A stretch of 64,000 nt of DNA. Origin: an uncultured Acidimicrobiales bacterium (GTDB lineage Bacteria > Actinomycetota > Acidimicrobiia > Acidimicrobiales > UBA10347). Shown one piece after another: positions 4,229 through 58,067 of the stretch. The stretch lies in contig CALKPY010000028.1 in assembly GCA_937991435.1 (NCBI GenBank), forward strand, positions 15,924 through 79,923. The letters are read 5' to 3'. A model generated the notes under the pieces. That model worked only from the letters and a program-made list of their open reading frames with translations, was not told the origin of the DNA and ran no database searches. The position numbers and the translations under genes are program-made. Numbering within the stretch: the first letter of the stretch is position 1; every line of letters begins with the position of its first letter.

Positions 4229-7200
4229 TTGAAAACCAGCGGCGAACGCCGATGGGAACAGGTGTTGAGTAGCTCTCCGGCGCATGCCGATCGTCGCCTT
4301 TGGGCTGCTCTTGCCACTGCGTTCATGTGGCACGGCGGAATGTTGCTCGGCGGTAGCTACGAGCGCACGTATGACGCGTATATCCATATGTTCTTCGCAG
4401 ACCACTACGCACGCGATTGGTTTTCCACCTGGGAGACCCGTTGGTACACGGGCTTCACCATCACGAGCTATCCGCCCGGCACCCATCAGCTCATTGCGTT
4501 GCTATCAAAGATCTTCAGCCTCGAAACAGCGTTTGTTCTTGTTCAGCTAAGCGCAGTTCTGCTGCTCATAGTCGGTGTGTATCGGTTCAGCCGTATTTGG
4601 GTTGACCCGGTCTCGGCTGGCTGGGCGGCGCTACTCGCTTCGGTGTCGACGTCGCTGGCCGAGGTCGTGCACGTTTTCGGTCAGCTTCCGACCACGTTCT
4701 CATTGGCGATGCTGCTCAACACGTTGCCTTCGATCTTTGTGTGGGTTCGCGACGGTTCGCGTGGCGATCTCGTGCTCGCGTGCGCAGGACTTGCCGCAAC
4801 AACCGCGGCGCACCACGTGACGACACTCTTTGGCGCTGTGTTCTTCGTCGGCCCGGTGGTCGCCACCGCGCTACTCGACCAGTTTCGCTGCCCGCACCCC
4901 GACGAGAAGCCAGGACATTGCGCCCGCGTTGACAGGTATTCGCTATGGCCCGCAATCGCCCGCCGCAGCCGTCGCGTACTTCCGGGCCTGGTTCGTGCTG
5001 GCGTCATCGGTACAGCCGCGATAGCGATCTTGGTCATTGTTGTACTTCCGTACTGGTTGTGGTCAGCGAGCGACCCGATCGTGCAGATACCAATACCTCA
5101 CGCCACGCGAGACAGTTTCATCGAAAACGGAGCGGCGGGCATCGTGTTCTTCGTCGTGCCGTGGGGCCTCATGGTGCTGATGCTGCCGTTCGCGTTGATG
5201 CGGTCGGTGTTCACCCGTGCTCTTCCGCTCGCGGCGTCGGTGGCTTTGTTGTTCATCCTCGGCACCGGAGGCACCACGCCGATTCCGCGTTTGTTGTTGC
5301 GATCGGCCTTTGACATCTTGACCCTGGACCGATTCACGGTCTGGGCGACCATTGGCGTATTGCCGTTGGTCGGAGCGCTCGTGACAAGCATGACCGACGG
5401 TCGCCTCAACACGATTGCTACCTCGCTGCTCGGCCGACGAACATGGAAGGCTGTACTCCTTGGCGGAGCCTGCGGTCTGATGGTGGCCAGCGTGTTGGCT
5501 GCCAACTTTGCCCAGTTCCGTCCGCTCCAGCCCGATCGAATCGACCCCGAGCCCATCGCGGCATTTATGGACAAAGACCAGCATGACCGCTGGAGATACT
5601 TGACCTTGGGGTTCGGCGATCAGATGGCCCGAGTGGCCGCCGAGACCACGGCGACGACGGTCGACGGCAACTATCACTCCGCTCGACGATTGCCTGAACT
5701 GACAAGCCGCTCTGTCGAGCGGCTCGAGGGGGCCAAATTTCGTGGTGTCCCTGGCCTCGGTTCCCTTCAGCAATTCTTGGCTACCCCTGAGCGTTACAAC
5801 CTCAAGTTCGTTTTCTCTAACGACGTGTTCTATGACCCGCTGCTTTGGGCATCGGGGTGGCATCGACTCGATCGTTTACGCAACGGCATCGTTGTATGGG
5901 AACGTGAAGACATACCCCCGCTACCTGATTTGTTGCCGACCAAAGAGCTTCCGGACTGGCAGCGAGTCATGTGGGGCACCTTGCCGATGTCGGCGCTGGC
6001 TGCGGCTGCGCTGACTCAGCTGTGGAACTTCGTTGGTCGACCCAACCCGCAGTCAGCTCAATGGGCCGCTCGCCAGGTTCGTTCACTCGGCCCGACGCCC
6101 GTCGCCCGGATTCTGACGTGGATCGATCGACGACTCGCACGTGCTGCCCAACGCGCGTCTTCAGGGCACCCACGCCACCGCTGGTATCGAGACGTCACCG
6201 AGACCTATCTGCAGCGATTGGACAGACTTGCCGAGCGCCGTGCGCCGAGTCTCCGACTGCGTCTCGCGTGCTGTGCACTGATAGGCGCCCTCGGTTTCGG
6301 GCTATGGCAGATGACAAGCGCGGACCTCGGGGCGACCGATGCCGAAGCAACCGTCGAGTCCTGGTACGACGATCTTGATTTCCAACGGTTTAGCGACGCA
6401 TGGAACCGGCTCGACCCGCAGGCCCGACCACCGTTTGACCAGTTCAGCCTTGAGCGCTCGGTTGTTGACGGCCTTGTCGCCGGTTACAGCAAGCTCGATC
6501 GTGTCGACACGGCGCTGGTCTCATCGACTTCAGACCGAGCAACCGTGCGGGCCAGCCTCAGCTATGTCACGTCGCTCACTCGCTACGACACCGTCGTCGA
6601 CCATCAGCTACGTCGAGTTGACGGACAATGGTGGATTGTTCCGTTCCAAAGCGACGTGTCAACAACACCCGACCAGTTCTCGCGCTCGACCGAAGTGACC
6701 TATCTCAGTCAGGGACGCAGACAGGTGACAGCTGATCAAACCGGTTTCGGCGATGTCTTAGACCGCCCTCGGATCGAGACGCTGAGTGCGCAGGCCGTGT
6801 ACCGAGACGGCCGATTCGCCGTCGTCGGCGAAATTACCAATCTCGATGTCGACCCGGCCGACATTACGGTGACCGCTCGCTTTCTTGGCGAAGACGGGGA
6901 GACGCTCGTCGAACACAATGCAGCGCTCGTCACCGCTAGCAAAGTTCTACCCAGAGAAACCGTTCCGTTTCGAATCGATATCGAAGCGATCGCTGGAGCA
7001 GCCGATGCCAAAGACGAAGCCGCTGGCGAGTTTCAGCCAGATCTGTTTGCCACACCTGACCTGGGTCCACGCGACATCGCCAACATCGAACTCATCACCA
7101 AAGCGGTGGTCACAGGCCGAGATCTTCAACGGGACCTTCAGCCACAGCACCTGCGGGTCGTCGTCGACGACACGGTTACGTTGCTCGGCGAGCTTCGCAA

Positions 7201-7513
7201 TGATGGCGTCGAGACTGCAACCGTTCCGCAGGTGCTCATCACCTTGATCGATGAAGAGGGCAACGTAGGTTGGGTTGACTCTGTATGGATCGACCAGGCG
7301 ATTCGCCCGCAGCGAATCGGTTCATTCAGCGTCGAGCTGACCAAACCCGATGTGCTCACCGCTCTCGATGTCCCGCTGATTGTGTACGGCAACGGCATCA
7401 CCCGGTCGGAGGGAAACCCGTTCAGTAGCGACGCCGTTATCGAGTTACCTCCCGAAAGTGGCTGGGCCTCGGCCCGCATCACGGTTCAGTCGTTCTATCG
7501 AGCATCGTCATGA
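4229..7513 (+). CDS. Large polytopic membrane protein, GT-C-fold-like (PTPS-related/PMT-like, tentative), with a C-terminal extracytoplasmic NTF2-like domain plus two beta-sandwich repeats
   Basis: The ORF is 1094 aa, starting at TTG 4229 (alternative GTG 4262). The first ~560 aa contain many hydrophobic helices, with a loop YDAYIHMFFADHY...WETRWYTGFTITSYPPG after the first helix. The soluble tail has an NTF2-like part ending ...RRVDGQWWIVPF and two repeats (DGRFAVVGEITNLD..., VTLLGELRNDG...). Confidence 0.75.
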   Translation: MKTSGERRWEQVLSSSPAHADRRLWAALATAFMWHGGMLLGGSYERTYDAYIHMFFADHYARDWFSTWETRWYTGFTITSYPPGTHQLIALLSKIFSLETAFVLVQLSAVLLLIVGVYRFSRIWVDPVSAGWAALLASVSTSLAEVVHVFGQLPTTFSLAMLLNTLPSIFVWVRDGSRGDLVLACAGLAATTAAHHVTTLFGAVFFVGPVVATALLDQFRCPHPDEKPGHCARVDRYSLWPAIARRSRRVLPGLVRAGVIGTAAIAILVIVVLPYWLWSASDPIVQIPIPHATRDSFIENGAAGIVFFVVPWGLMVLMLPFALMRSVFTRALPLAASVALLFILGTGGTTPIPRLLLRSAFDILTLDRFTVWATIGVLPLVGALVTSMTDGRLNTIATSLLGRRTWKAVLLGGACGLMVASVLAANFAQFRPLQPDRIDPEPIAAFMDKDQHDRWRYLTLGFGDQMARVAAETTATTVDGNYHSARRLPELTSRSVERLEGAKFRGVPGLGSLQQFLATPERYNLKFVFSNDVFYDPLLWASGWHRLDRLRNGIVVWEREDIPPLPDLLPTKELPDWQRVMWGTLPMSALAAAALTQLWNFVGRPNPQSAQWAARQVRSLGPTPVARILTWIDRRLARAAQRASSGHPRHRWYRDVTETYLQRLDRLAERRAPSLRLRLACCALIGALGFGLWQMTSADLGATDAEATVESWYDDLDFQRFSDAWNRLDPQARPPFDQFSLERSVVDGLVAGYSKLDRVDTALVSSTSDRATVRASLSYVTSLTRYDTVVDHQLRRVDGQWWIVPFQSDVSTTPDQFSRSTEVTYLSQGRRQVTADQTGFGDVLDRPRIETLSAQAVYRDGRFAVVGEITNLDVDPADITVTARFLGEDGETLVEHNAALVTASKVLPRETVPFRIDIEAIAGAADAKDEAAGEFQPDLFATPDLGPRDIANIELITKAVVTGRDLQRDLQPQHLRVVVDDTVTLLGELRNDGVETATVPQVLITLIDEEGNVGWVDSVWIDQAIRPQRIGSFSVELTKPDVLTALDVPLIVYGNGITRSEGNPFSSDAVIELPPESGWASARITVQSFYRASS

Positions 7514-8790
7514 GCGCACCTACGCCACAAAATCGGCGACGCGGACCGTCTGTCTCATCGCTCGCGTTGGCGGCGCTCGTGGCGGCCGCACTGTTGGGAT
7601 TGTTGAGCGCAGTACTCGTCACTGGTGGCCCTCGAGGGGCGACCCCAGTTCTCAAAGGGCAGTTGGGTACGCGGCTGACCATCAACGCCCCGATCGAGAG
7701 CCGGGCAGGCCAAATTGTCACGCTGCAAATTGCCGGTGCACCGATCGCCAGTGACCAGGTGCAACTTGTGCAATTCGGTTCGCTGTCGACGACAACCAGC
7801 GTGCACAAACTCGACGCAGGGTCCGCGAGCATCACCATCGACGCCTCGCACACGACTCATGCAGGCCTGATTCATTGGGTCGCTGTTGCAGGTTCCGCCA
7901 GCGGTAACGCGTCGACAATGATCACTCCGGGCAATGCCGTCGACCCGGTGACTCCTTTGGTCGGCCCGAGAACAGTCATAGCCGACGGCGATGACTTCAC
8001 CATGGTTGTTGCATCACCAACCGACGAATTCGGAAATCCCGTTGCCGATGACACCCGGCTCATGACAACGGTCGAACGGCCAGATGGCACGAGAACACGA
8101 GATGACATTTCGGTGAATGCTGGGATCGCCGCTCAAGTCATCGCCTCACAAACACGCGCTGGGCGCGTCACGGTGTCGGTCACCGCCGGCGACGCGATCG
8201 GCCCCACAACCAGCTTTGACCAGGTGGCCGGCGTACCGGCCGCGTTCAGACTCTCCGCTGACGACACACCCAAAACTGCCGACGGATTTACTCTGCACAC
8301 GCTCGAGACTGGAACGCTCCTCGATCAGTACGACAACCTGCTGCCCGACGGCATCAATGTCGTTTTTGGCATCGAGGGTCCACAAGGACGAACGCAAATC
8401 GACTCGACGGTGCAATCGGGAACTGCGAGAGCCAACTTCGAGGCGCCCGGACTGCCAGGCGTAGTCGAAATCACGGCGCGAGTGAGCGGGCGCACAGGCG
8501 AGCCGCTGCGAATCGACTTCGATCCGGCGGTTTCAGAAGTGTCGGCCGCGGCCATCGTCGATGGAAGCGACGTGAAGCTTTCGATTGGGCCCGTACGCCT
8601 CATCGCAGGCGGTTACGTACCAGATGGAACCGACGCAATCGTGGTCGATGCCGACGGAGCGGTCGTGGCTAAGACTGGGCTCTTTCGCGGCGAGTCGACG
8701 ATGACGGTTCCTGGCGAAGTAGGCGACTCGTTCGAGATCTACGTGTTGGGGAAGCTCGTTCGTGTTGTTGTCGCGGCTGGCGACTCATGA
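7510..8790 (+). CDS. N-terminally anchored protein with invasin/intimin-type Ig-like (Big_1-like) domains
   Basis: The start overlaps the upstream stop as ATGA. The TM anchor is LALAALVAAALLGLLSAVLV. Repeated patterns ADGDDFTMVVASPTDEFGNPVADD and ADGFTLHTLETGTLLDQYDNLLPDG are typical of Big_1 repeats. Confidence 0.7.
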   Translation: MSAPTPQNRRRGPSVSSLALAALVAAALLGLLSAVLVTGGPRGATPVLKGQLGTRLTINAPIESRAGQIVTLQIAGAPIASDQVQLVQFGSLSTTTSVHKLDAGSASITIDASHTTHAGLIHWVAVAGSASGNASTMITPGNAVDPVTPLVGPRTVIADGDDFTMVVASPTDEFGNPVADDTRLMTTVERPDGTRTRDDISVNAGIAAQVIASQTRAGRVTVSVTAGDAIGPTTSFDQVAGVPAAFRLSADDTPKTADGFTLHTLETGTLLDQYDNLLPDGINVVFGIEGPQGRTQIDSTVQSGTARANFEAPGLPGVVEITARVSGRTGEPLRIDFDPAVSEVSAAAIVDGSDVKLSIGPVRLIAGGYVPDGTDAIVVDADGAVVAKTGLFRGESTMTVPGEVGDSFEIYVLGKLVRVVVAAGDS

Positions 8791-9401
8791 GAACCCGAAG
8801 TGTCAAACAAGCTCTTGGCGCCACCGTTGCGGTTGCTATCGCGGCGCTGATCGCCGTCGGGCTTGTCGCGTTGGCTCTCGTAGTACAAAGGACCAACACT
8901 GGCGCCGACCCAATGGCGTCGTTCACACAAGTTCCTGCTGTGCCAGACGATGTGCAAGCGCTAATCACGTGGCTCCCTGACGGGGAGCTCGCACGCCGGG
9001 TTGAACCAACGACCCGAGAAGCAGTAGGGGCCGCATGGGCTCGCGGGTGGCACCGGCTCGACGTTGCGCAGCGCACGCACGACTCTGCCGGAATTGAGAC
9101 CTGGTTTGTCGGCGCACTGCCAGAGCAGATCGCTGCTTCCGTCGGCGAGACCCAGGTGCGGTCGAGCGTGACGCAGTTTGGCCACACCATGCAGATCACC
9201 TTCTATTCGCTCGACGGATCCATCATCGGGCTGGAGTCGATGAGCGACATCGAACGCGCAGTCGAATCCGGACCGAGTCGTCGGTCGGTCGAACGGTTGC
9301 AAGCAGTACTGGTACTGTCAGACGGCAACTGGAGGGTGCGCCACCTCACTGCCCTTCCTACTTCGTCAACCGACAAGCCAACATTCTCGGAACCTACGTG
9401 A
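8787..9401 (+). CDS. Membrane-anchored hypothetical protein, NTF2/SnoaL-like extracytoplasmic domain (tentative)
   Basis: The start overlaps the upstream stop as ATGA. The TM helix is ATVAVAIAALIAVGLVALALVV. The C-terminus ...AVLVLSDGNWRVRHL resembles the NTF2-like segment in the tail of the 4229..7513 protein. Confidence 0.6.
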   Translation: MRTRSVKQALGATVAVAIAALIAVGLVALALVVQRTNTGADPMASFTQVPAVPDDVQALITWLPDGELARRVEPTTREAVGAAWARGWHRLDVAQRTHDSAGIETWFVGALPEQIAASVGETQVRSSVTQFGHTMQITFYSLDGSIIGLESMSDIERAVESGPSRRSVERLQAVLVLSDGNWRVRHLTALPTSSTDKPTFSEPT

Positions 9402-10972
9402 CCACGCCCGAATCTTCGTCGCTCAACATCGAAGCCTTTGCCTCGGTCAGTCACGAGCTGCGCGCACCGCTGCACGCCATCGTGGGATTGTCTGAGCTTC
9501 TTCTCGACCGAGAGCTCAGCGACGAAAACCGAGAGCTCGCCGAAGGAATCCATCGCGAGGGCGAAGCTCTGCGAATCATCATTGACGACCTGCTGGACCT
9601 GTCCAAAATCAACGCCGGACAGATGCGCCTCGTCGTTCAACCACTCGCACCTCGCGCTGTCGTCGACGAAGTGCTCTCGATGTTTCTGCCTCAGGCCCAA
9701 ACACGCGGGCTTGCGCTGCAAACAACCGTCGACGAACGAGTTCCACGGTCGGTTCGCGCCGACCGATTTCGGCTACGCCAAGTCGTCGTCAACCTTGTCT
9801 CCAACGCTGTCAAATACACCACCTCGGGTGGGGTGCAGATTCATGTTGACGCTCCCGAATCAGATCGCCTGACCTTCGAAGTCGCAGACACCGGACCGGG
9901 GATCCCCGACGGTGCACTACCCGGACTGTTCGACCCCTTTCAGCAGGCACGTGATCGAGACCGAACCCAAGGCACAGGTCTTGGGCTCTCGATTTGTCAA
10001 CGGTTAATCGACCTCATGGGCGGAACCTTGACTCTCGACACCTCGCCAGCTGGCACCACGTTTCGTATCGAGATACCTGTCGAACCAACCGCGACTACCC
10101 CTGTACAGAAACGAGACCTTCTCAGCAGCGGACCGCATGGGCGCGTTCTCGTAGTTGATGACACGCAGGTCAATCGACTCGTAGCCATTTCACAACTCGA
10201 GCGGCTCGGACACCACGCCACGGCCGTGTCGAGCGGACACGAGGCACTCCAGAAACTCGAAAACGAGCACTTCGACGTTGTGCTCATGGATTGGCATATG
10301 CCAGATCTCGACGGGCTCGATACCGCCCGTGAATATTTTGAACGAGCCCGCAGCCGAAAGGCCGAGCCCATCCCGTTGATCATGATGACAGCGAGCGTGT
10401 CAGCCGAGGCCCGCGAAACCTGCCTCAAGGCCGGCATGTCTGACTTCCTCCCGAAACCGGTCAACCTCGACAGCCTCGCGACCTGTCTCAGCCAATGGAT
10501 CACCGGGGTCCCGACCGAGCCAGCCGAGACCTCGACTGACATCGATGGGGTGTCGCAACCTGCGTCGGTCGACCGTTTGGTCATCGATCGCATGATCAGC
10601 GACCTCGGGTCCGATGCGCCAGTTATTGCGGTCATCGACGCCTTTATTGCTGACTCCGCAGTGCGACGATCAGATTTGACCCGAGGCGACAACACAGAAC
10701 TCGCCGCCCGTGCCGCCCATACGTTCAAGTCGACCGCCGCTCTTCTCGGAGCAACCGGCCTATCCGAAACCTGCGCCGAGATCGAATCTCACTACCGAAA
10801 CGGCGAGGCCGCAGCCGCGGCAGCCCCCGCGATCGTGAGCTTGTTCGAAGGTCAGCTCGATGCTGCCGTGACAGAACTGAGGCAGATTCGCGACGGGCTC
10901 GCTAACGCTTCGAGCAGCTCAGACGCTGACCAAGAACCATCAACGTCAGAGACAAACGAGGAAATTCTATGA
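9398..10972 (+). CDS. Cytoplasmic hybrid histidine kinase (DHp-CA-REC-HPt) with no recognisable input domain
   Basis: The start overlaps the upstream stop as GTGA. The H-box SHELRAPLHAIVGLSELL sits at residue ~18. CA motifs are NLVSNAVKYT, DTGPGIP and GTGLGLSI. The REC domain shows VLVVDD...DVVLMDWHMPDLDG...LPKPV. The HPt motif is AAHTFKSTAALLGA. There is no TM or PAS segment. Confidence 0.9.
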   Translation: MTTPESSSLNIEAFASVSHELRAPLHAIVGLSELLLDRELSDENRELAEGIHREGEALRIIIDDLLDLSKINAGQMRLVVQPLAPRAVVDEVLSMFLPQAQTRGLALQTTVDERVPRSVRADRFRLRQVVVNLVSNAVKYTTSGGVQIHVDAPESDRLTFEVADTGPGIPDGALPGLFDPFQQARDRDRTQGTGLGLSICQRLIDLMGGTLTLDTSPAGTTFRIEIPVEPTATTPVQKRDLLSSGPHGRVLVVDDTQVNRLVAISQLERLGHHATAVSSGHEALQKLENEHFDVVLMDWHMPDLDGLDTAREYFERARSRKAEPIPLIMMTASVSAEARETCLKAGMSDFLPKPVNLDSLATCLSQWITGVPTEPAETSTDIDGVSQPASVDRLVIDRMISDLGSDAPVIAVIDAFIADSAVRRSDLTRGDNTELAARAAHTFKSTAALLGATGLSETCAEIESHYRNGEAAAAAAPAIVSLFEGQLDAAVTELRQIRDGLANASSSSDADQEPSTSETNEEIL

Positions 10973-11502
10973 AGGGCATCATTTTCAACGCTGTCGAGTC
11001 GGCAGTCACCGATCTGTACTCGGCTGACACTTGGGACGACCTTCTCGACGCGGCTGGCCTCGATGGCGACTACACATCGATTGGCACCTACGACGACGAA
11101 GAGTTGCTCAAGCTTGTCGGCGTCGCGGTAGAAGCGACCGGCGAAGACCCAGCAACCCTGATTCGGACCCTCGGGACCAAAGCGTTTACGCACCTTGCGA
11201 CACGCCACCCAGAGTTCGTCGAAGGGGTTTCCGATACACGCTCGTTCTTACGAACGGTCGACGAAATCATTCATCCTGAGGTCATGAAGCTTCATCCCGA
11301 CTCGACTCCGCCGCGGTTCCGCTATGAAGACCTCGAAGACGGCACGCTGCGAATGACCTATGAATCCAAGCGCAAACTCGGTCTACTTGCCGAAGGCCTA
11401 ATCTTGGGTGCCGGCGACTGGTTCGGAGAAAAGGTCTCGATCGCCACCGTCTCGGGCTCGGGCGAAGAAGTCACCGTGTATGACTTGTCGTTCGAGCCGT
11501 AG
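10969..11502 (+). CDS. H-NOX (haem nitric oxide/oxygen binding, HNOB) domain protein
   Basis: The start overlaps the upstream stop as ATGA, and GAGGA lies 7 nt upstream. The N-terminus is MKGIIFNAVESAV. The proximal-His region is VDEIIHPEVMKLHPDSTPPRF. The haem-propionate motif Y-x-S-x-R appears as MTYESKRKL. At 177 aa it is the typical stand-alone H-NOX size. Confidence 0.85.
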   Translation: MKGIIFNAVESAVTDLYSADTWDDLLDAAGLDGDYTSIGTYDDEELLKLVGVAVEATGEDPATLIRTLGTKAFTHLATRHPEFVEGVSDTRSFLRTVDEIIHPEVMKLHPDSTPPRFRYEDLEDGTLRMTYESKRKLGLLAEGLILGAGDWFGEKVSIATVSGSGEEVTVYDLSFEP

Positions 11503-11507
11503 TCGAC

Positions 11508-12419
11508 GTGACCAAACGTGACGACGGCGATGATGCCGATCAGCGTCTAGAGCGCTTAGAGCGTCGTCTCAAACGGGCTCAGAGCGCTCGGCTCGAAGCC
11601 GAGACTATTGCCGACCGACGCATGCGCGAGCTCTACCTCAGCAACCTGGAACTCGACGAACGCGTCGCGGCCAGAACAAGGGACCTTGAGCTGGCGGTAG
11701 CCGAGCTCGAATCCACCTCGTCGGCCGCCGCAGGGTTCCTTGCGAACCTGAGCCACGAAATGCGCACGCCGCTCAATGGCATTATCGGCATGCTCGAGTT
11801 GCTGCCCAGCCATGTCAACGGCGAGCAAGGCCGTCAATACCTCGACACTGCGCTCGAATCGAGTCGCACTCTCAACGCCCTCGTCTCGCGACTTATCAGC
11901 GCCGCTGAGGTCGGAACCACGAGCGCCCACGACCGATCACCGTGGCCACTTGGCGTCATCGCGGAGTCGATCGACGATTCGTGGAGGTTGCCGTGCCTGT
12001 CCAAAGGACAGCTTCTCACTATTCGGGTGGTCGGCTCTGACGGCACGACTGTCAACGTTCCTTCGGTACTGCTGCTGCAGACGGTTCGGGAATTGATGAG
12101 CAACGTCGTCACGCACGCAGATGCCGGTGTCGTGACGATCGACATACGACTTGAACCGCCGACCGACACAGAACCAGCACCGATGCTGCACCTAACGATC
12201 ACTGATCCGGGACCAGGCTTTGACGTCACGCACGAGGCCGACCTACTCGAATCTGTGGCGCGCGCCGACACCACATCGACACGTGCAGGTGGCGGGCTCG
12301 GCTTGGGGCTCTATCTCGCTCACGACAGCGTGCGGCGGTCCGGGGGTCGAATGGAGATCGTGAGCGGTACAGGACAACCAACCGCGATTGATATACGAAT
12401 CCCAGCCACAAACAGCTGA
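11508..12419 (+). CDS. Cytoplasmic histidine kinase (coiled coil-DHp-CA), candidate H-NOX-associated kinase
   Basis: The GTG start lies 5 nt after the H-NOX stop. The N-terminus is a charged coiled coil (LERLERRLKRAQSARLEAE...). The H-box is SHEMRTPLNGIIGMLELL, and CA motifs are DPGPGF and GGGLGLGLYL. There is no TM or sensor domain. Confidence 0.88.
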   Translation: MTKRDDGDDADQRLERLERRLKRAQSARLEAETIADRRMRELYLSNLELDERVAARTRDLELAVAELESTSSAAAGFLANLSHEMRTPLNGIIGMLELLPSHVNGEQGRQYLDTALESSRTLNALVSRLISAAEVGTTSAHDRSPWPLGVIAESIDDSWRLPCLSKGQLLTIRVVGSDGTTVNVPSVLLLQTVRELMSNVVTHADAGVVTIDIRLEPPTDTEPAPMLHLTITDPGPGFDVTHEADLLESVARADTTSTRAGGGLGLGLYLAHDSVRRSGGRMEIVSGTGQPTAIDIRIPATNS

Positions 12420-12479: not shown

Positions 12480-13694
12480 GTGTCCGTACCGAACCAACTG
12501 CCCCGTCGAGTCGGCCTGATTACCGCATTCCCGCCCGGTCGAAACAGTCTCAACGAATTTGGCTTCCACCTCGTGAGCCATATGGCCGAGAACCCGCAAC
12601 TCGACCGCGTGGTTGTGTTTGCCGATGAGACCGACGCCGGTCCCCCGCAGCCGATTCCCGGCACCGAGGCTGTCGTCTGCTGGAAGTTCAACGATCTAAC
12701 GAATCCACTTCGTCTGATTCGAGCAGTACGACGATCCAAGGTCGACGCGGTTCTCGTCAACCTGCAATTCGCAACCTTTGGCGACAGCAAGGTCGCCGGC
12801 GGTCTGGGACTTCTGGCTCCCGCCCTACTCAAGCGAATGGGCATTCCCACCGGGGTGATCTTGCACAATCTGGTCGACAACGTCGATATGCAAGATGCCG
12901 GATTCGCATCGAGCAAGTTGATGGCCAAGATCATGAACACCGCCGGTGAAATGCTGACCCGCACGATTCTGCAAGCCGACTACGTCGCCCTCACGATTCC
13001 TCGCTACGTCGAGTTACTCCGGGACAAGTACGGCGCTACTAACGCACTGCTGACGCCCCACGGGAGCTTTGAGGAGATCGACGAACCGTCATTCGGTGTT
13101 CCTGCCGACGGCCCACGTCGCATTTTGGCATTTGGCAAATTCGGCACCTATAAGACCGTCGACATTCTCGTCGAGGCCTACCGCCTGCTCATCGAACGGG
13201 GCTACCACGACCTTGAACTCGTGATTGCCGGGACCGACAGCCCGAACTCACCCGGCTATCTCGCCAATGTCGCGAGCGGTTGCGCCGACCTCGAATCTGT
13301 CACGTTCACCGGATACGTCGAAGAAGCGGACGTAGCGGGGCTGTTCGAGACTTCGGCAATCACCGCGTTTCCGTATACGAGCACGACTGGGTCTTCAGGC
13401 GTCTTGCACCAAGCCGGTTCGTATGGCCGCGCTGCTGTGCTTCCTCAGATCGGCGACTTCGTTGAGGTCATCGAAGAAGAAGGCTTTGTGGGCGTCTACT
13501 TTGAGCCGGGAAGCGCCAAAGGGTTGGCTGACGCGCTGGCCGCGGCGCTCGATGACCCCGAAATGATTGCGGAACACGGTCGACGCAACTATCTGGCCTC
13601 GACGGGTATCCCCATGAGTGAAGTCATCGACTGGCACCTGCTGCATCTTGGCGAAGCGATGAGTTCTCAAGTTCGCACGACCGCGACCCCATGA
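12480..13694 (+). CDS. Glycosyltransferase, GT4-type (GT-B fold)
   Basis: The 404-aa ORF has a GTG start. The C-terminal half carries the typical GT4 pattern (TSTTGSSGVLHQAGSYGRAAVLPQIGDFVEVIEEEG). Confidence 0.8.
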   Translation: MSVPNQLPRRVGLITAFPPGRNSLNEFGFHLVSHMAENPQLDRVVVFADETDAGPPQPIPGTEAVVCWKFNDLTNPLRLIRAVRRSKVDAVLVNLQFATFGDSKVAGGLGLLAPALLKRMGIPTGVILHNLVDNVDMQDAGFASSKLMAKIMNTAGEMLTRTILQADYVALTIPRYVELLRDKYGATNALLTPHGSFEEIDEPSFGVPADGPRRILAFGKFGTYKTVDILVEAYRLLIERGYHDLELVIAGTDSPNSPGYLANVASGCADLESVTFTGYVEEADVAGLFETSAITAFPYTSTTGSSGVLHQAGSYGRAAVLPQIGDFVEVIEEEGFVGVYFEPGSAKGLADALAAALDDPEMIAEHGRRNYLASTGIPMSEVIDWHLLHLGEAMSSQVRTTATP

Positions 13695-15028
13695 CGGTGA
13701 ACACCCGCGACGACGGAACGGAAACCGCTCCCGGGTCAGCGGCGCCAACGACAGACGCCACTGGATCACGGGCGTTGATGGCCGGCGGGTCGGTGCTGGC
13801 ACTGGCAATGTTTGCGGCCAACGGCGGCAATTACCTGCTCAACGTCGTGCTCGGACGATGGCTTGAACCAGCAGAGTTCGCCGATGCGAATCTGATGGTC
13901 ACCCTCATGCTGCTCGTCACTGCAATCGCGGTCAGCCTGCAGCTGATTGGCGCCAAGTTCACCGGGCAATATGAAATCAGCGGCACCGACGATCAGACCC
14001 GTGCCCTCGCTCGGGGCCTTAGCCGACTGGCGATCGGCTCAGGCGTTGTCCTCGCCGCGCTCTTGGCTGTAGGCGCCCCCGTTTGGCAGAACCTGTTCAA
14101 CACCGAATCATCGTGGCCGTTTGTGATCCTTGGCATCGGCATGCCCGCGTATCTTCTTCAGGCCGTCGGGCGAGGCGTGTTACAAGGGCAACTCGCCTTT
14201 TCGAAACTGGCGTCGACGTTCATCTCCGAAATGGTCGTGCGAGTCGTTCTGGGAGTGGCTCTCGTCGCGATGGGTTATGGCGTGATCGGCGCTACAGCAG
14301 CGCTCACTGCGTCGTTCGTTGCTACCTGGTTAGCCGTGCGTCGAGCTCTCGGCTGGAAGAAATCAACCGTGCAAGCTGATGTTCCCGCGGCGGTCCGTTC
14401 GTACGCAGGTCCCGTCGGCGTGCTGCTGCTCGGGCAAATCATCATCAACAACGGTGATGTACTCATCTCGAAGAACGGACTCGACCCAGAGACGGCTGGC
14501 ATCTACGCCGCAGTGGCTCTCGTCGGCCGAGCGGTGTTCTTCCTCAGCTGGTCAGTAGCGACGACCTTGTTTCCCGCAGCCGCTCAACGCAACGAAGCTG
14601 GCGAAGACTCCAGTGGCCTGCTGCATGCAGGCCTGGGTGTTGTCGCAGTACTCGGTGTCGTCGCAGTGCTCGCCGCTCACTTTCTCGGTGGAACGGTTCT
14701 GGGTCGAGTCTTTGGACCCGAGTACGCCGGCGTTTCGGGGCACCTGAGCCGATACGCACTCGCAACTGCGGTCTTTGCCATGGCAAACCTCGTCGTGTCG
14801 CATCACCTTGCACTTGGTCGGCTGCGTGAAGCGCTGATCATGGTGGCCGGAGCGGTCGTTCAGACCGTGCTACTTCTCACCGCCGCCCAGACAATCGAAG
14901 CTCTTATCGAAGCGCAGGTGTATGCCATGGCCATCTTGTTCATCGCTGTTGCTGCGAGCCACGCTGATCGGCTACGCGCTGGCCACCCGAAATTCACCGA
15001 CCCCACGAACTCGAGAATGACATCGTGA
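13691..15028 (+). CDS. Polysaccharide/oligosaccharide flippase (MOP superfamily, Wzx-like)
   Basis: The start overlaps the upstream stop as ATGA. The 445-aa protein is very hydrophobic with many TM helices. The N-terminal pattern ...GNYLLNVVLGRWLEPAEFADANLMV is typical of polysaccharide biosynthesis flippases. Confidence 0.75.
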   Translation: MTVNTRDDGTETAPGSAAPTTDATGSRALMAGGSVLALAMFAANGGNYLLNVVLGRWLEPAEFADANLMVTLMLLVTAIAVSLQLIGAKFTGQYEISGTDDQTRALARGLSRLAIGSGVVLAALLAVGAPVWQNLFNTESSWPFVILGIGMPAYLLQAVGRGVLQGQLAFSKLASTFISEMVVRVVLGVALVAMGYGVIGATAALTASFVATWLAVRRALGWKKSTVQADVPAAVRSYAGPVGVLLLGQIIINNGDVLISKNGLDPETAGIYAAVALVGRAVFFLSWSVATTLFPAAAQRNEAGEDSSGLLHAGLGVVAVLGVVAVLAAHFLGGTVLGRVFGPEYAGVSGHLSRYALATAVFAMANLVVSHHLALGRLREALIMVAGAVVQTVLLLTAAQTIEALIEAQVYAMAILFIAVAASHADRLRAGHPKFTDPTNSRMTS

Positions 15029-15810
15029 CCGCACCCACGTCTTCATCGACCTATCGCTCATGGGCAGACACGCCGAACACCGGTCCAATTGCTTGGTCGG
15101 TCGTGATACCGACATACAACGAATCAGAGCGTGTCGTTCCGACCATTGGAGCCATTGCCGCACATCTAAGTTCGCTCGGCTCCCCATGGGAACTCATCGT
15201 CGCTGACGACGGTTCAACCGACGACACTGTCGAAGTGCTCAACGCACTTGGGCTTGCGAACTTGCAGGTACTGGTCGCCGAACAAAATGGCGGCAAAGGA
15301 AGCGCAGTCCGCCGTGGCGTGCTGGCAGCGCAAGGCGATGTAATCCTCTTCGCCGACGCAGACCAAAGCACCCCGATCGAACAATTCGCATCGCTGCTGT
15401 CGTGCATTGAAGGTGGCGCCGACGTGGCCATTGGTTCGCGAGCAGCTGCAGGCGCACACGTGTCCAACAAGTCGATGGCGCGCAAGGTGTTTAGCAAAGG
15501 CCTGAATCTGCTGGTGCGATTCGGGTTCGGCGTGCATCACGCCGATACGCAATGCGGCTTCAAGATGTTCACCACCACGGCTGGGCGTCAGCTGTTCCAG
15601 AGGCAGCTGATCGACCAGTTCTCCTTCGATCTCGAAATCTTGTACCTGGCGAAGAAATTCGGCATGCGGGTCGACGAAGTTCCTGTTGAATGGATCGATG
15701 CACCCGGATCGACTGTCGACCCAGCAAAGGTCGCAGTCGAATTCTTGAAAGACATGGCAGTCATTCGCTGGAACGACCTGCGTGGCCGCTATCGCCGCGA
15801 CAATCGATGA
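15025..15810 (+). CDS. GT2 glycosyltransferase, polyprenyl-phosphate sugar synthase-like (DPM/DPG synthase family)
   Basis: The start overlaps the upstream stop as GTGA. Motifs are WSVVIPTYNESERV, ADDGSTDDT, GKGSAVRRG and FADADQSTP (DxD). Confidence 0.85.
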   Translation: MTAPTSSSTYRSWADTPNTGPIAWSVVIPTYNESERVVPTIGAIAAHLSSLGSPWELIVADDGSTDDTVEVLNALGLANLQVLVAEQNGGKGSAVRRGVLAAQGDVILFADADQSTPIEQFASLLSCIEGGADVAIGSRAAAGAHVSNKSMARKVFSKGLNLLVRFGFGVHHADTQCGFKMFTTTAGRQLFQRQLIDQFSFDLEILYLAKKFGMRVDEVPVEWIDAPGSTVDPAKVAVEFLKDMAVIRWNDLRGRYRRDNR

Positions 15811-15901: not shown

Positions 15902-16219
15902 ATGAATATCGAGACTCAGCACCATGACAACGACAGCGCTGGCCTTGTGCTGTCTGGGCGCTTCGATGCCTTCGAGACCGATGCCTTTCGCGCAACGATT
16001 GACCCGCTGTTGGCGAGCGAGTCGACGGCCAAGGTGAGGGTGACAATGGCCGACGTCAACTTCATTGACTCATCGGGGCTCGCTGAACTGGTGAGGTCAA
16101 TGAAGCGGGCACGCGAGGCCGGCGGCGATATCGAGCTGCATAACCCGTCAGACCCGGTGCGCGTCATTCTCGAGCTGACTCGGCTCGACCTGGCCTTTAC
16201 CATCACATCTGCCGAGTGA
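15902..16219 (+). CDS. STAS-domain anti-sigma-factor antagonist-like protein
   Basis: ORF 15782..16219 is trimmed to the ATG at 15902, with AGGA upstream. It carries the motif NFIDSSGLAELV, including the conserved phosphorylatable Ser context (DSSG). Confidence 0.8.
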   Translation: MNIETQHHDNDSAGLVLSGRFDAFETDAFRATIDPLLASESTAKVRVTMADVNFIDSSGLAELVRSMKRAREAGGDIELHNPSDPVRVILELTRLDLAFTITSAE

Positions 16220-17820
16220 CGACGGCCGATCCACCGTTCGATGCCCTGACGTCGGTCACCGGCGCGTTGGTCGACGCGAACGATCGGCTGCTTGAGCTCA
16301 TCACGCTTACCGGCACCGCCTCTACGTCACTTGACGAGGGCGAATTGCTCGACACTCTCATCGAACCCACGATCGCGCTCTTACATCTCGACGGTTGCCG
16401 ATTGTCGGCCAAGATCGAGCGAACCTGGGGCACCCCGCCGACCGTCGACCTTGAGTCGACCGCCCATCAATGGAAGTCAAACCGCAACGTCGCCGACGAA
16501 TCGATCGAAATGGTCGTTTGGCGCACAGCTGACCCATTTGGCACCGCCGACGCCAAGCTGCTCGAAGCGATTGCCAACCTTGCAGGCAACGCCATCGGCA
16601 TGGCTCGCATGCACGCCGAGGGGTTAGCCCAGGCTGCCATCGGCCAAGAACATGCCGCTGCCGCGAAATTGGCATCGGCAGCGCTTCCCGATCCTCTGAT
16701 TCCTCCGACCGTCCCCCACGCCACGATTTGGGCCGCCGCTCGACCGGCACGCACCACCGGCGGCGACCTGTTCGTCTGGGCTGAACTCGACAACCAGTTG
16801 TGGTTTGCGGTCGGCGATGTTTCGGGCAAGGGACTTCCGGCCGCAGTTCTGATGACGGTGTGCACAACATCGATTGAGACCGCTATTCAACGTCACGGTG
16901 AGCAGGGGCCTGTCGCAGTCCTCGACTCGGTGACCCGGTCAACGCACCGACGTTTGTCAGATGCGGGCATGTTCCTCACGATCGCTCTCGGGCGTTTCTG
17001 CCCAACGACACGCACCGTAGAGATGGCCAACCACGGGCATAGTCCGATCGTATTTCGACAAGCGCACGAGGTCCGAAGAATCTCGGCCACCGCTCCCCCA
17101 ATTGGTGTGCTTGTCGACGCCCGCGCTGAGCTTGAAAGCTTTGTGGTGCAACCCCACGACCTTCTCGTCATCGCCACCGACGGACTCACCGAACAAATAG
17201 ATGCAGCCGGGAACTTGTTTGGGGAATCGCATTTCGACGCGCTCGTCGCATCGTTGGAACTCAGTGACGCAGATCATGTCGGGACATCGATACTCGCCAC
17301 CGTCGACACTCATCGAGGCACGACAGCTCAGTCTGACGACCAGACCCTGATGGTGATCGGCTTCCATTGTGAACGAACACGGCCCCTTTTGATTGATGCG
17401 ACGAACCAAGGCGTACGAGCACTTGGTCCGTGGCTTTCTGAACACCTCGCAATCCTCGCCAACGGTCGATTCGAATCCCGTCTCGGCGAAATCGAATTGG
17501 CGGTGCACGAGATTGCGATGAACATCGTCGATCATGCGTTGGCCGATGCTCCAAGCTCTAGGTTCGCGTTAACACTGACCGTTGACGACGACGAGCTCGT
17601 GGCCGAATTTCGCGACCGGGGATCTGCGTTTGGGGTTGCGCCGTCGCGCCCCGACCCGGAACACCCGCAGGTCGGCGGCTACGGACTCATGATTGTTGAG
17701 CAGCTTGCGTCTCGCATCGAGCGCAGCCGTATCGACGATCTCAACATTTCTCGACTGTGGTTTTCGAGCCAAGGCTCTATTCCCGCCGCTTCAGGCCGAA
17801 AGGAAGCACATGACGCTTGA
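16216..17820 (+). CDS. GAF-like / PP2C (SpoIIE) phosphatase / RsbW-type serine kinase (GHKL) fusion protein
   Basis: The start overlaps the upstream stop as GTGA. The PP2C core shows GGDLFVW...WFAVGDVSGKGLPAAVLM...IATDGLTE...SDDQTLMVIGF. The C-terminal kinase shows HEIAMNIVDHA, FRDRGSAFG and GGYGLMIVEQL. Confidence 0.85.
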   Translation: MTTADPPFDALTSVTGALVDANDRLLELITLTGTASTSLDEGELLDTLIEPTIALLHLDGCRLSAKIERTWGTPPTVDLESTAHQWKSNRNVADESIEMVVWRTADPFGTADAKLLEAIANLAGNAIGMARMHAEGLAQAAIGQEHAAAAKLASAALPDPLIPPTVPHATIWAAARPARTTGGDLFVWAELDNQLWFAVGDVSGKGLPAAVLMTVCTTSIETAIQRHGEQGPVAVLDSVTRSTHRRLSDAGMFLTIALGRFCPTTRTVEMANHGHSPIVFRQAHEVRRISATAPPIGVLVDARAELESFVVQPHDLLVIATDGLTEQIDAAGNLFGESHFDALVASLELSDADHVGTSILATVDTHRGTTAQSDDQTLMVIGFHCERTRPLLIDATNQGVRALGPWLSEHLAILANGRFESRLGEIELAVHEIAMNIVDHALADAPSSRFALTLTVDDDELVAEFRDRGSAFGVAPSRPDPEHPQVGGYGLMIVEQLASRIERSRIDDLNISRLWFSSQGSIPAASGRKEAHDA

Positions 17821-18148
17821 GACCTCTTCGCACGAGATTCGCATTGACACGATCGTGTTGGGTGACCGGCTCGACGCGCTACGGGCGGTGGAATTGCGTG
17901 AACAGATCACCGCGGCGGTCGCCGGCGGCACCGTTCGCATCATCGTCGATTTGTCGACCACCCAATTTGTCGACAGTGCAGGGCTTGCAGCGCTGGCCAA
18001 AGGCATGAAGGACTGTCGCTCAGGCGGCGGCGATCTGAGGGTTGTTTCGTCGCAGCACCCAGATGCCGCCCGCGTGTTCGCTCTCACGCGCTTCGATCAA
18101 GTGTTCGTGATGGCCGAATCCGCCGATGACCTGTTGCGAACCTGGTAG
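17810..18148 (+). CDS. STAS-domain anti-sigma-factor antagonist-like protein (second copy)
   Basis: ORF 17693..18148 is trimmed to the ATG at 17810, preceded by GAAAGGAAG. It overlaps the upstream gene by 11 nt. It carries the motif QFVDSAGLAALA. Confidence 0.8.
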   Translation: MTLETSSHEIRIDTIVLGDRLDALRAVELREQITAAVAGGTVRIIVDLSTTQFVDSAGLAALAKGMKDCRSGGGDLRVVSSQHPDAARVFALTRFDQVFVMAESADDLLRTW

Positions 18149-18154
18149 TCCGCA

Positions 18155-18529
18155 GTGGCTCACCTTCTCGTCATCGACGATGACCCCGTCAGCTTGCTTG
18201 TGGCTGAACATATTTTGCGCGGCGCCTCTCATGATGTCAGCACAGCAACAGGCGCACAGTCCGCGCGTGCAGCGCTGCGCGATGCCAACGCCGTGATCGA
18301 TCTCGTTGTGTGCGACGTGCATATGCCGGGCGAGTCCGGCTTCGACCTGCTCGATTCGTTGACCCGAAGCGAAACCCCAGTGCCACCTTTTCTTATGCTT
18401 ACCGGTGTTCGAGATGAGGCCGAACGAGGTAATAGCCGTGCCGATTCCGCCGCTGGCTACTTGACCAAGCCAGTTCGGTCAGAAGATCTTCTCAACGCGG
18501 TCGAGTCAATACTCCAAAGCTCGTTCTGA
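18155..18529 (+). CDS. Single-domain response regulator (CheY-like receiver only)
   Basis: The GTG start lies 6 nt after the STAS stop. Receiver motifs are LLVIDDD, DLVVCDVHMPGESG and YLTKPV. At 124 aa it has no output domain. Confidence 0.85.
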   Translation: MAHLLVIDDDPVSLLVAEHILRGASHDVSTATGAQSARAALRDANAVIDLVVCDVHMPGESGFDLLDSLTRSETPVPPFLMLTGVRDEAERGNSRADSAAGYLTKPVRSEDLLNAVESILQSSF

Positions 18530-40700: not shown

Positions 40701-40929
40701 GTTCCCAAACACCACGCGCGACATTGCGAACAATGACCTCAAGTCGGCCAGACAAAGCTGGAAACACCGCACGTTCTCTTCAGGCGACAGCGATCGCGCC
40801 GAAATCGCCACCATGTTCGCTGGCGTTGCCTTTGACGACCTATTACGTGATCCAATCAATGCTCAAGACCAAGCCGCTGAGCTTCACCACCACATCGCCG
40901 CAACAACCTCAGACTGGTCCGACTCGTGA
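37738..40929 (+). CDS. recC: Exodeoxyribonuclease V gamma subunit (RecC)
   Basis: The 1063-aa protein has the N-terminal stretch ELIVVPSAGLQRWLEQQLA, typical of RecC. It is followed by recB and recD with overlapping stop/start codons. Confidence 0.88.
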   Translation: MPVHITTAENMHNLAHALAGSVGGVRSDPFVEELIVVPSAGLQRWLEQQLAVELGVAANLRFLLPGALTAKLRSMSGATESDSWRLDAITGQVFRLGNPYASEDATDWTGELQGPGSWMARARYIADLFDRYGMHRPHMLRNWAIGNDVGGDSEPLADAAVWQPRLWRAVREQLGPAPAEQLMSFLADLATHDMALTKASRVHVFGLSAMSVEFVQVLRALAVSTDMRLFVPVTSDTRAGSVLRGQGEDPTHPLLATWGRTERDGLGLLREHLPEPAAAADRLTVEPTLVSLLGQLQQQIRLDATPSNADVTADTSMQFHACSGESRQVEVLKDAILHLLKADASLNESDILVMCPQLRRYAPLIEASWGLSARHDESTPGDRVPSLRYAINQGSLNQAAPIIEALQRLLALVRGSVTHSELAAFLALEPVRLRFGFSEDYDLATATEWLGRTAMRWGLNVDHRQRRADLPTHYQAHTLKQSSTAIVGSMAFDEAEIMPAGPAAIRLDLSQFELAAQLGDLTTTLEQIDREWVAGRPADATVWVQRLDTACRQLFAVADTERWQLDALRTVIESIHTVAPDDTLLSIDDLADAIDDAVATRSGWRHFGTGAIIIDQPQALRAVPHRVICLLGFDDDAIPSPGTSGDDLIASHPLPGDRDRRLESKQQLLEAVLSATDTFVVTFSSHNIHTNAEIPPSVALQELLDAAATVAGVRPGQLIRQHARHRWAPSNFELSNPWSFDGSALEIEVARRARSNERWGPADPLPAEQIDAVSLRELVLAASDPSSIYVRDRLGVSLPRPAEQPGDLLPASLSTLERWSVGNGLLHARAKGQSAQQWEQHARSAGHLPPGALGKAEAADAEENVDTLLDAVRQITGVDYTSVTSSLQPISLEIRGTKVLGLVELLNDQVLRVRWSSRKGADDLALWIDALVLSQIGHFEPAFWFSRKSKSLQVLRCRINPDAQAACQTALAYLCDLHRQARREPIALFPNTTRDIANNDLKSARQSWKHRTFSSGDSDRAEIATMFAGVAFDDLLRDPINAQDQAAELHHHIAATTSDWSDS

Positions 40930-57918: not shown

Positions 57919-58067
57919 TGTTGTTAAACCCGATCGGATTAGTCGTCTTTGGAAATCCTGACCTTAGACCCACCGCCCCCTAAAGGCAACCAATTTGGTC
58001 GGGATTAAGGATGAGACTTTGCGTGGTTAGGCAGCCACGTGACGCGAACTCTCGATACGCTGACGGC

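Follow-up and report, generated by a model that had tools for sequence, protein, structure and literature searches.

A cysteine-free H-NOX protein between two histidine kinases in a conserved 13-gene cluster of Acidimicrobiales

Described H-NOX systems and the present locus

Signalling by H-NOX haem sensors has been worked out only in Proteobacteria, and according to a 2022 review no H-NOX from a Gram-positive species has been studied (PMC8738867). Here, we describe an H-NOX gene (hnoX) and its surroundings in the DNA of an uncultured Acidimicrobiales bacterium (assembly GCA_937991435.1, contig CALKPY010000028.1, positions 15,924 to 79,923 of the forward strand). The whole stretch of 64,000 nt is called the window, and coordinates refer to it unless another locus is named. 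The hnoX gene lies between the genes of two histidine kinases, HK1 and HK2. We give a slightly better than even chance to the reading that the locus is a self-contained cytoplasmic gas-sensing head for a surface-glycan or exopolysaccharide (EPS) cluster in Acidimicrobiales. The cluster would offer a clean Gram-positive test case. If the reading is true, nitric oxide (NO) would be tied to biofilm or cell-surface behaviour in an actinobacterial order that is widespread in waters and soils but little studied.

The taxonomic occurrence of H-NOX here is not new, because actinobacterial homologues were reported earlier. The same review, citing a 2020 sequence-similarity network (SSN), places them in Acidimicrobiaceae, Nocardioidaceae, Micrococcaceae and Mycobacteriaceae (PMC8738867, PMC7108781). 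A preliminary description of this DNA had named no characterised actinobacterial H-NOX, which agrees with the review, but the presence of such genes in Actinobacteria was already on record. Our literature search found no paper that pairs H-NOX with Acidimicrobiia, with STAS proteins or partner switching, or with a glycosyltransferase cluster. What is new is that two kinases with probably distinct roles are combined, in a single locus without a cyclic di-GMP (c-di-GMP) enzyme, with glycan genes and a split switch like that of SypE/SypA. As the sensor, kinases, HPt domain, receiver, switch and presumptive targets are co-encoded, the pathway can be rebuilt from one 14-kb fragment.

The nearest functional parallel comes from Vibrio fischeri, where the kinase HahK is inhibited by NO-bound HnoX and signals via the HPt domain of the hybrid kinase SypF to SypE and SypA (PMC12369376). 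SypE consists of a Ser kinase, a receiver (REC) and a PP2C phosphatase, SypA is a STAS protein, and the Syp polysaccharide is controlled below the level of transcription (PMC12369376, PMC10120452). A STAS/PP2C module of Anabaena directly controls an EPS enzyme (bioRxiv 10.64898/2026.04.08.717354). As in V. fischeri, hnoX of the window adjoins the gene of a cytoplasmic kinase, and a separate hybrid kinase supplies the HPt domain. STAS proteins, PP2C, an RsbW-like kinase and a receiver again accompany a glycosyltransferase/flippase cluster. The systems differ in that V. fischeri uses two distant loci, whereas the genes described here form one 14-kb block. HK2 lacks the receiver of HahK (D506). 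The domains united in SypE are distributed over two genes in the window, one for a PP2C/kinase protein that begins with a GAF-like domain and one for REC. Moreover, the present locus has two STAS proteins, no SypG-like sigma-54 regulator and a Cys-free H-NOX, and it belongs to an actinobacterium.

The combination of a stand-alone NO-type H-NOX with a soluble, input-less HisKA kinase resembles the H-NOX-HnoK pairs of Shewanella oneidensis and Vibrio cholerae (28-32% identity between the H-NOX proteins). The Shewanella and Vibrio systems (HnoB/C/D) act through c-di-GMP enzymes, whereas the window cluster has no GGDEF, EAL or HD-GYP gene. In addition, their H-NOX proteins carry a three-Cys Zn site and serve one kinase, whereas the H-NOX of the window has no Cys and is accompanied by two kinases. 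In Pseudomonas aeruginosa, the NosP-NahK-HptB-HsbR-HsbA pathway runs from an NO-responsive hybrid kinase through an HPt step and a PP2C/RsbW-like regulator to a STAS protein, and it constitutes a biofilm-motility switch. The hybrid kinase, the HPt step, the PP2C/RsbW-like kinase and the STAS protein are shared with the locus studied here. In contrast, the sensor in P. aeruginosa is NosP of the FIST family, HsbR has a fused receiver, HptB is separate, and the outputs are FlgM, HsbD and RpoS.

The H-NOX protein and its haem pocket

The preliminary description had reported three open reading frames (ORFs) that code for an H-NOX protein and two flanking kinases, and all three were found exactly where it had put them. 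The H-NOX gene (10969..11502, forward strand) codes for 177 aa with the N-terminus MKGIIFNAVESAV. In a search against Pfam HNOB (PF07700), the protein matched profile positions 1-161 of 163 with E=6.8e-37 and 127.3 bits, far past the cut-off of 25.5 bits. The sequence search of PDB returned H-NOX proteins only, with Shewanella woodyi 6ocv at the top (E=5.8e-28) and the S. oneidensis protein at E about 1e-19. Identity to H-NOX proteins of solved structure was 23-32%. The fold was confirmed by an AlphaFold2 (AF2) model (pLDDT 83.4, pTM 0.80). The top 45 Foldseek matches of this model were all H-NOX or soluble guanylate cyclase beta1 proteins, and S. oneidensis 4u9b was matched with a TM-score of 0.87 (E=6e-14).

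The residues of the haem pocket were mapped by a BLASTP alignment to the Thermoanaerobacter (Tt) H-NOX, the sequence of which was first confirmed to be identical to 1u4h. The proximal His102 pairs with Tt His102 and, in the alignment to the S. oneidensis (So) protein, with H103. The propionate motif Y131-x-S133-x-R135 coincides with Tt Y131/S133/R135. H102, P115, Y131 and S133 are present in 120/120 homologues, and R135 in 119/120, so the proximal His and the Y-x-S-x-R motif, both previously recognised by hand alignment, are near-invariant. The 177-aa ORF is a genuine H-NOX, and every haem-binding determinant is kept. Haem binding is predicted from these conserved ligands.

The distal pocket of the protein differs from that of Tt, where W9, N74 and Y140 are found at the positions of V9, A72 and L140. 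The replacement of the distal Tyr by Leu had been noted before, and it was borne out by the mapping; among the 120 homologues, position 140 is always occupied by L, F or M and never by Tyr. The protein contains no Cys at all (So C139 corresponds to G138). A trio of Zn-ligand Cys (plus His/Gln) is typical of the V. cholerae, So and Caulobacter crescentus (Cc) proteins, which belong to SSN groups 2-3. The three Cys occur in 0/60 of the closest homologues and in 32/60 of the next ones. By its residues, the H-NOX of the window is assigned to the NO-type, non-O2 distal-pocket class without the Zn/Cys redox site. Its ligand is most likely NO, and NO sensing is predicted for it.

Among proteins from related systems, the H-NOX homologues of the genus Caulobacter (loci L044 and L050; L numbers designate the hnoX loci compared) are 42-47% identical to the H-NOX of the window, which is more than any homologue with a solved structure. 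The partner kinase of the genus (L044) has the same N-terminal helix as HK2, described below. The C. crescentus protein (SSN group 3) differs by its Zn/Cys site, its NO-bound form is inactive (PMC12329717), and its HnoK is a single hybrid kinase. This comparison bears on another explanation, that the H-NOX of the window is no NO sensor but responds to O2, CO or the redox state of the haem, or works independently of haem, like the Caulobacter protein and haem-free Vibrio proteins. In the related group 3, the Cc protein was the first to be characterised, and it is the oxidation of Cys, not NO, that regulates it. Acidimicrobiales are mostly aerobes, and HnoK of Shewanella and Vibrio is inhibited by Fe(III) H-NOX as well. 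However, the H-NOX of the window contains no Cys and its 60 closest homologues lack the Zn-ligand trio, so it cannot signal by Cys/Zn oxidation, which leaves haem ligation or haem oxidation. L, V and A take the places of the Tyr, Trp and Asn on which a stable O2 complex depends. The invariant haem ligands argue for a haem-dependent function, with which haem oxidation as the signal is still compatible. Taking these points together, we regard this explanation as improbable and keep NO as the most likely ligand. A natural Cys-free H-NOX separates haem-based from Zn/Cys-based signalling, which is the question raised by the Caulobacter result.

The two kinases and the N-terminal helix of HK2

The arrangement of the triad was read directly in the DNA. 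The TGA stop of HK1 overlaps the ATG of hnoX (ATGA), with a GAGGAA element upstream, and 5 nt (TCGAC) separate the TAG of hnoX from the GTG of HK2; both junctions are as first described. Since all three ORFs start at the most upstream possible start codon, no upstream input domain is hidden. The conservation of this arrangement was determined by BLASTP of the window proteins against the ORFs of 81 hnoX loci. The order HK1-HNOX-HK2 was found in 25/81 loci, all from Acidimicrobiales (Ilumatobacter included). Uncultured Acidimicrobiales (Acidimicrobiia, Actinomycetota), represented by metagenome-assembled genomes (MAGs), account for almost all of the 26 closest genomic relatives (50-77% identity). 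The closest syntenic ones (60-77% identity) are all Acidimicrobiales MAGs, which confirms the earlier impression of an actinobacterium-like genome. Further hnoX genes were found in Nitriliruptorales, Solirubrobacterales, Thermoleophilaceae, Micrococcales and an Arthrobacter isolate.

HK1 (9398..10972, forward strand; 524 aa) is a cytoplasmic unorthodox hybrid histidine kinase with the architecture DHp-CA-REC-HPt. Pfam assigned HisKA to residues 12-74, HATPase_c to 122-229, Response_reg to 250-362 and Hpt to 415-496. The predicted phosphorylation sites H19, D298 and H441 are conserved in 23 sequences, which also keep the H-box, the N, G1 and G2 boxes, the D/D/T/K residues of REC and the His of HPt. 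HK1 thus has the domain order and the His, Asp and His residues that define unorthodox kinases of the ArcB/TorS/BarA/SypF type. It is no orthologue of any named kinase, because all NCBIfam equivalog scores were far below the cut-offs.

HK2 (11508..12419, forward strand; 303 aa) is a cytoplasmic minimal histidine kinase composed of a partner helix, a signalling helix, DHp (H83) and CA, with HisKA at residues 76-131 and HATPase_c at 188-301. In 24 sequences, H83 is kept together with the N, G1 and G2 boxes. As a soluble HisKA/HATPase_c kinase encoded in the same orientation directly 3' of hnoX, HK2 is a putative H-NOX-associated kinase of the HnoK/HahK/HqsK type. The domain architectures proposed earlier for both kinases agree with these Pfam assignments. 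No transmembrane-like segment was present in either kinase (maximum KD19 hydropathy 1.38 for HK1 and 1.05 for HK2), and Pfam found no input domain in the HK1 and HK2 of the window. The preliminary description was therefore right that neither kinase of the window has a transmembrane segment, PAS or other recognised input.

The first 70 residues of HK2 are occupied by a conserved helix (11526..11690, forward strand; aa 7-61), which is a candidate H-NOX docking element. A hidden Markov model (HMM) of the helix was built from 24 HK2 N-termini of the triad clade only and searched against 2925 ORFs of 55 non-triad hnoX loci, among which the HnoK sequences of Shewanella and Vibrio were not included. 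About 52/55 of the loci were matched (E=4e-17 to 7e-6). Every match was the N-terminus of the gene directly 3' of hnoX, and the next unrelated ORF had E>=0.02. The core common to the partners is RLxRRLxRERxARxEAExIAERGxRxLY. The genes that carry the helix have various outputs (GAF-GGDEF-EAL, PAS-GGDEF-EAL, GAF-GGDEF, GAF-HK, HK-REC-REC, hybrid-HK, REC and others). They occur in Actinomycetota, Alpha- and Betaproteobacteria, Verrucomicrobiota, Acidobacteriota and other groups (N-termini in L020-L080 and L085-L088).

A larger search was made with a profile of homologous fragments of 43-97 aa. Among 1.84 billion representative proteins, it matched 2,274 clusters at E<=1e-3. The match started within the first 34 residues in 150/150 top matches. 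In 72/74 full-length matches, GAF was next to the helix, followed by HK (50), REC (27), GGDEF (20) or EAL (16). In the converse check, 4/4 proteins picked by the motif alone were encoded directly 3' of hnoX or of its frameshifted remnant. Neither Pfam nor NCBIfam has a model that matches the helix of HK2 or 34 homologous segments. The possibility that the HK2 N-terminus is Pfam HNOBA or another known domain was considered and ruled out, as it had no match in either database.

These results suggest that HK2 is a pared-down version of the canonical hnoX partner, in which the helix is joined directly to DHp. In the HMM search, the helix was absent from HK1, from all HK1 orthologues and from every window ORF except HK2. 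As it is in HK2 and not in HK1, HK2 is likely the direct H-NOX partner, and the two kinases are probably not equivalent. The statement that H-NOX is flanked by two kinases stands, but they are probably not equal targets. According to the review cited above, no structure of an H-NOX bound to its partner is available at high resolution (PMC8738867). The helix offers a specific interface hypothesis and would make it possible to recognise H-NOX partners by their sequence only.

The flanking of hnoX by two kinases could also mean that H-NOX directly regulates both of them (a 1:2 hub), so that the relay and the simple kinase would answer NO in parallel. We consider this unlikely. The HK1 and HK2 of the window have no transmembrane segment, PAS or GAF domain, and hnoX overlaps HK1 on one side and lies 5 nt from HK2 on the other. 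The flanking order is kept in 25 loci, and in roughly half of the triad loci the HK1 ORF is too short for a PAS domain. However, HK1 and all its orthologues lack the helix that is otherwise near-universal in hnoX-adjacent effectors, and every characterised system has its partner encoded 3' of hnoX (PMC8738867). Furthermore, an N-terminal PAS domain, confirmed by Pfam, is present in the HK1 orthologues of L082 (7916-9841) and L084 (8019-9983), and about ten further HK1 ORFs (566-733 aa) are PAS-sized, judging by maximal ORF length only. This suggests a separate input channel, and since PAS is present in some orthologues, the domain content of HK1 varies within the clade. Consequently, the claim that both kinases have no visible sensor other than H-NOX holds in the window but not in general. 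With HK2 as the likely partner, HK1 appears to be a REC-HPt relay hub to which a separate input can be added.

Other hnoX loci show further arrangements. In L020, L023, L024, L029 and L049 (Acidimicrobiales/Actinomycetota MAGs), hnoX is followed by a single hybrid kinase with the architecture helix-DHp-CA-REC-REC. This second locus type has no upstream kinase and no glycan genes. A tandem duplication, hnoX-HK-hnoX-HK, was found in an Actinomycetota MAG (L074, 5980-9546). L086 (2950-7234) contains hnoX, a hybrid kinase, a single REC, a HisKA fragment and a protein with REC and a guanylate/adenylate cyclase domain (PF00211). It could be a bacterial H-NOX-to-cyclase relay in separate genes.

The conserved cluster and the proposed pathway

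The triad is real, as described before, but it is not a stand-alone unit: it forms the sensory head of a conserved cluster of 13 genes. Their order is membrane protein, Big_1 protein, single-pass membrane protein, HK1, H-NOX, HK2, GT4, flippase, GT2, STAS, GAF-like-PP2C-RsbW-kinase fusion, STAS and CheY-like receiver, all on the forward strand. Twelve of the genes overlap or lie within 6 nt of a neighbour, and there is a single gap of 60 nt, after HK2. In at least 19 of the 25 triad loci, the triad is followed by genes for GT4, a Wzx-like flippase, GT2, STAS and the PP2C phosphatase. Protein identity among the at least 19 species sharing this order is only 35-80%. In L082, L083 and L084, which have 10-kb flanks, the block runs on with the RsbW-like kinase, the second STAS and the single-domain receiver and then stops; beyond the receiver, the genes differ in each species. 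No GGDEF, EAL or HD-GYP domain was found in the window ORFs scanned with Pfam (cluster genes and others of at least 180 aa) or in the orthologous clusters of L082-L084, which sets the locus apart from the H-NOX pathways that use c-di-GMP (HaCE, HnoB/HnoD). The cluster encodes no DNA-binding regulator.

Downstream of HK2, the GT4-family glycosyltransferase (12480..13694) matches Pfam Glyco_trans_1_4 and Glycos_transf_1 and, weakly, the NCBIfam EPS proteins EpsE/EpsH. Its orthologues, 69-80% identical, come after HK2 in at least 19 loci. It is followed in conserved synteny by a MOP/Wzx-type polysaccharide flippase (13691..15028) with Polysacc_synt and Polysacc_synt_3 domains and about nine or more transmembrane segments. 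The next gene, also in conserved synteny, codes for a GT2 glycosyltransferase (15025..15810; Pfam Glycos_transf_2) that resembles polyprenyl-phosphate sugar transferases, with sub-threshold NCBIfam similarity to AglJ, ArnC, PpgS and dolichyl-phosphate hexose transferases.

The partner-switching genes begin with STAS1 (15902..16219), an anti-sigma-antagonist type protein with a phosphorylatable Ser in a DSS motif. It matches Pfam STAS and STAS_2 and, above the cut-off, TIGR00377. The longest possible ORF starts at 15782, and the D-S pair is invariant in 4 species. The following gene (16216..17820) codes for a fusion protein of 534 aa that consists of a GAF-like domain, a long helix, a PP2C phosphatase (SpoIIE, residues 192-383) and an RsbW-like Ser kinase (HATPase_c_2, residues 402-505). 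In PDB, the fusion matches Rv1364c of Mycobacterium tuberculosis (3ke6) and the 6k4e phosphatase. PP2C and the RsbW-like kinase are also fused in P0328 and P0378, and they are split into two overlapping genes (about 407-418 aa and ~136 aa) in L082 (15607-17243), L083 (15331-16994) and L084 (15305-16938). The best Foldseek matches of an AF2 model of the N-terminal part (pLDDT 85) were all GAF domains, though weak (E>=6e-3, TM-score 0.4-0.48). A receiver-phosphatase of the HsbR/SypE type was considered for this protein and rejected, as no REC match appeared even at E<=1 and the N-terminus is weakly GAF-like.

STAS2 (17807..18148; Pfam STAS, TIGR00377) has a conserved Ser in a DSA motif, and both the protein and its D-S serine are conserved in the orthologues of L082-L084. 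The two STAS proteins bearing a phosphorylatable Ser, the PP2C phosphatase and the RsbW-like Ser kinase are components of partner switches of the SypE/HsbR/CrsR type, but the receiver that is fused to the phosphatase/kinase protein in that type is encoded separately here. The last gene (18155..18529) codes for a single-domain CheY-like receiver of 124 aa (Pfam Response_reg, E=1.3e-19), and it is also the last gene of the conserved block in L082, L083 and L084. Residues D8, D9, D54, T83 and K105 are invariant in 4 species. It is the only REC in the window besides that of HK1, and we propose it as the terminal phospho-acceptor of the relay.

Upstream of HK1, three membrane or surface proteins are encoded. 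A large polytopic membrane protein (4229..7513; 1094 aa) has about eight transmembrane-like segments within its first 430 aa. The C-terminal part is extracytoplasmic and includes an FxLYD domain (NCBIfam FxLYD_dom, E=1e-5) at residues 861-920; Pfam and PDB gave no match. Its orthologue adjoins the triad in more than 20 loci (46-59% identity). It may act in glycan assembly or be a GT-C-like enzyme, the latter idea being a guess. The next gene (7510..8790) codes for a membrane-anchored or secreted Ig-like surface protein of 426 aa with Pfam Big_1 and Invasin_D3 domains and one N-terminal transmembrane or signal segment. It overlaps both neighbours by 4 nt, and its adjacency to the membrane protein gene is conserved. 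The third gene (8787..9401), the stop of which overlaps the start of HK1, codes for a single-pass membrane protein of 204 aa with one N-terminal transmembrane segment. It has no family match in Pfam or NCBIfam, and orthologues are present in L001, L021 and L041. This trio is co-directional with the triad in the window, L001 and L021, and inverted and divergent in most other loci (e.g., L003-L018).

The gene content suggests the following pathway. Ferrous H-NOX would bind a diatomic ligand, most likely NO, at the haem and change its conformation. HK2 would read this change through its N-terminal helix, and its autophosphorylation would be altered. In the systems characterised so far, kinase activity is inhibited by the NO-bound sensor. 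HK2, which has no receiver, would pass its phosphate to the REC of HK1, or else act parallel to HK1 on the terminal receiver. HK1 would serve as an autophosphorylating His-Asp-His relay hub, to which a PAS input is added in some species, and its HPt domain would phosphorylate the terminal CheY-like receiver. This receiver, encoded beside STAS2, might bias the balance between PP2C and the RsbW-like kinase and in this way set the phosphorylation of both STAS proteins. The STAS proteins could then control glycan production post-transcriptionally, as SypA does in V. fischeri and All4160 in Anabaena.

The signalling and glycan genes might instead be mere neighbours, in which case the triad would control an unlinked regulon or only the partner-switching module. 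We judge this to have a low probability. It fits with the fact that no direct molecular link is visible between the REC/STAS proteins and the glycosyltransferases. L021 and L071 keep the triad without GT4-flippase-GT2 directly downstream, and in L041 and L077 these three genes are rearranged upstream. On the other hand, mere neighbours would hardly be expected to keep the same order in at least 19 species at 35-80% identity while the outside flanks differ, or to have overlapping reading frames throughout, and there are precedents of STAS modules that act directly on polysaccharide synthesis.

Several points weigh against the gas-sensing head as we propose it. The H-NOX of C. crescentus, the closest relative that has been characterised, binds NO, yet it controls its kinase via Cys/Zn oxidation only (PMC12329717). 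As the NO-bound protein does not regulate the kinase, a haem pocket alone is no guarantee of NO signalling. Haem binding, the identity of the ligand, each transfer of phosphate and the direction in which the kinases are regulated are all inferred. The links from the receiver to the partner switch and from the STAS proteins to the glycan enzymes are conjectural, and the PP2C protein has no receiver. The overlap of the HK1 stop with the hnoX start is equally compatible with HK1 as the H-NOX target. The role in polysaccharide synthesis is presumptive, as the GT4, GT2 and flippase matches from which it derives are generic and do not reach the NCBIfam equivalog cut-offs. Co-transcription of the 13 genes is predicted from gene spacing only, and in promoter and terminator scans the counts were not above the shuffled expectation. 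Finally, the cluster has no gene for a sigma factor, an anti-sigma factor or any other defined output.

The helix and the cluster can be combined into one broader proposal, which we put forward tentatively, as less probable than not. According to it, the helix (~30 residues, RLxRRLxRERxARxEAExIAE) would be a previously undescribed portable H-NOX docking element that specifies the controlled protein in 2,000 or more protein clusters whose outputs are of the kinase, GGDEF/EAL or HD kind. In Acidimicrobiales, it would wire a Cys-free haem-based H-NOX into a two-kinase His-Asp-His-Asp relay. This relay would switch surface-glycan synthesis post-translationally via a split SypE-like STAS module, without c-di-GMP or a transcription factor.

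Genes of the window outside the cluster

A gene at 54723-57122 (reverse strand) codes for a 799-aa NIR_SIR (nitrite/sulfite reductase) protein, which may be an assimilatory sulfite reductase. It is the only window gene that could conceivably touch nitrogen-oxide chemistry, and the Pfam scans of the window ORFs found no other NO-related gene in the 64 kb. A surface protein of 949 aa with DUF11, DUF7507 and isopeptide (FctA-like) repeats is encoded at 58011-60860 (forward strand). Two divergent genes of the citrate synthase family were found at 47453-48613 (reverse strand) and 48737-49852 (forward strand), the former with an N-terminal HTH_17 DNA-binding domain fused to the citrate synthase domain. 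At 37738-46210 (forward strand), three consecutive genes code for proteins of the RecC type (Exonuc_V_gamma and RecC_C), the RecB type (UvrD-helicase and UvrD_C) and the RecD type (AAA_30 and UvrD_C_2), and this trio looks like an ordinary RecBCD housekeeping operon.

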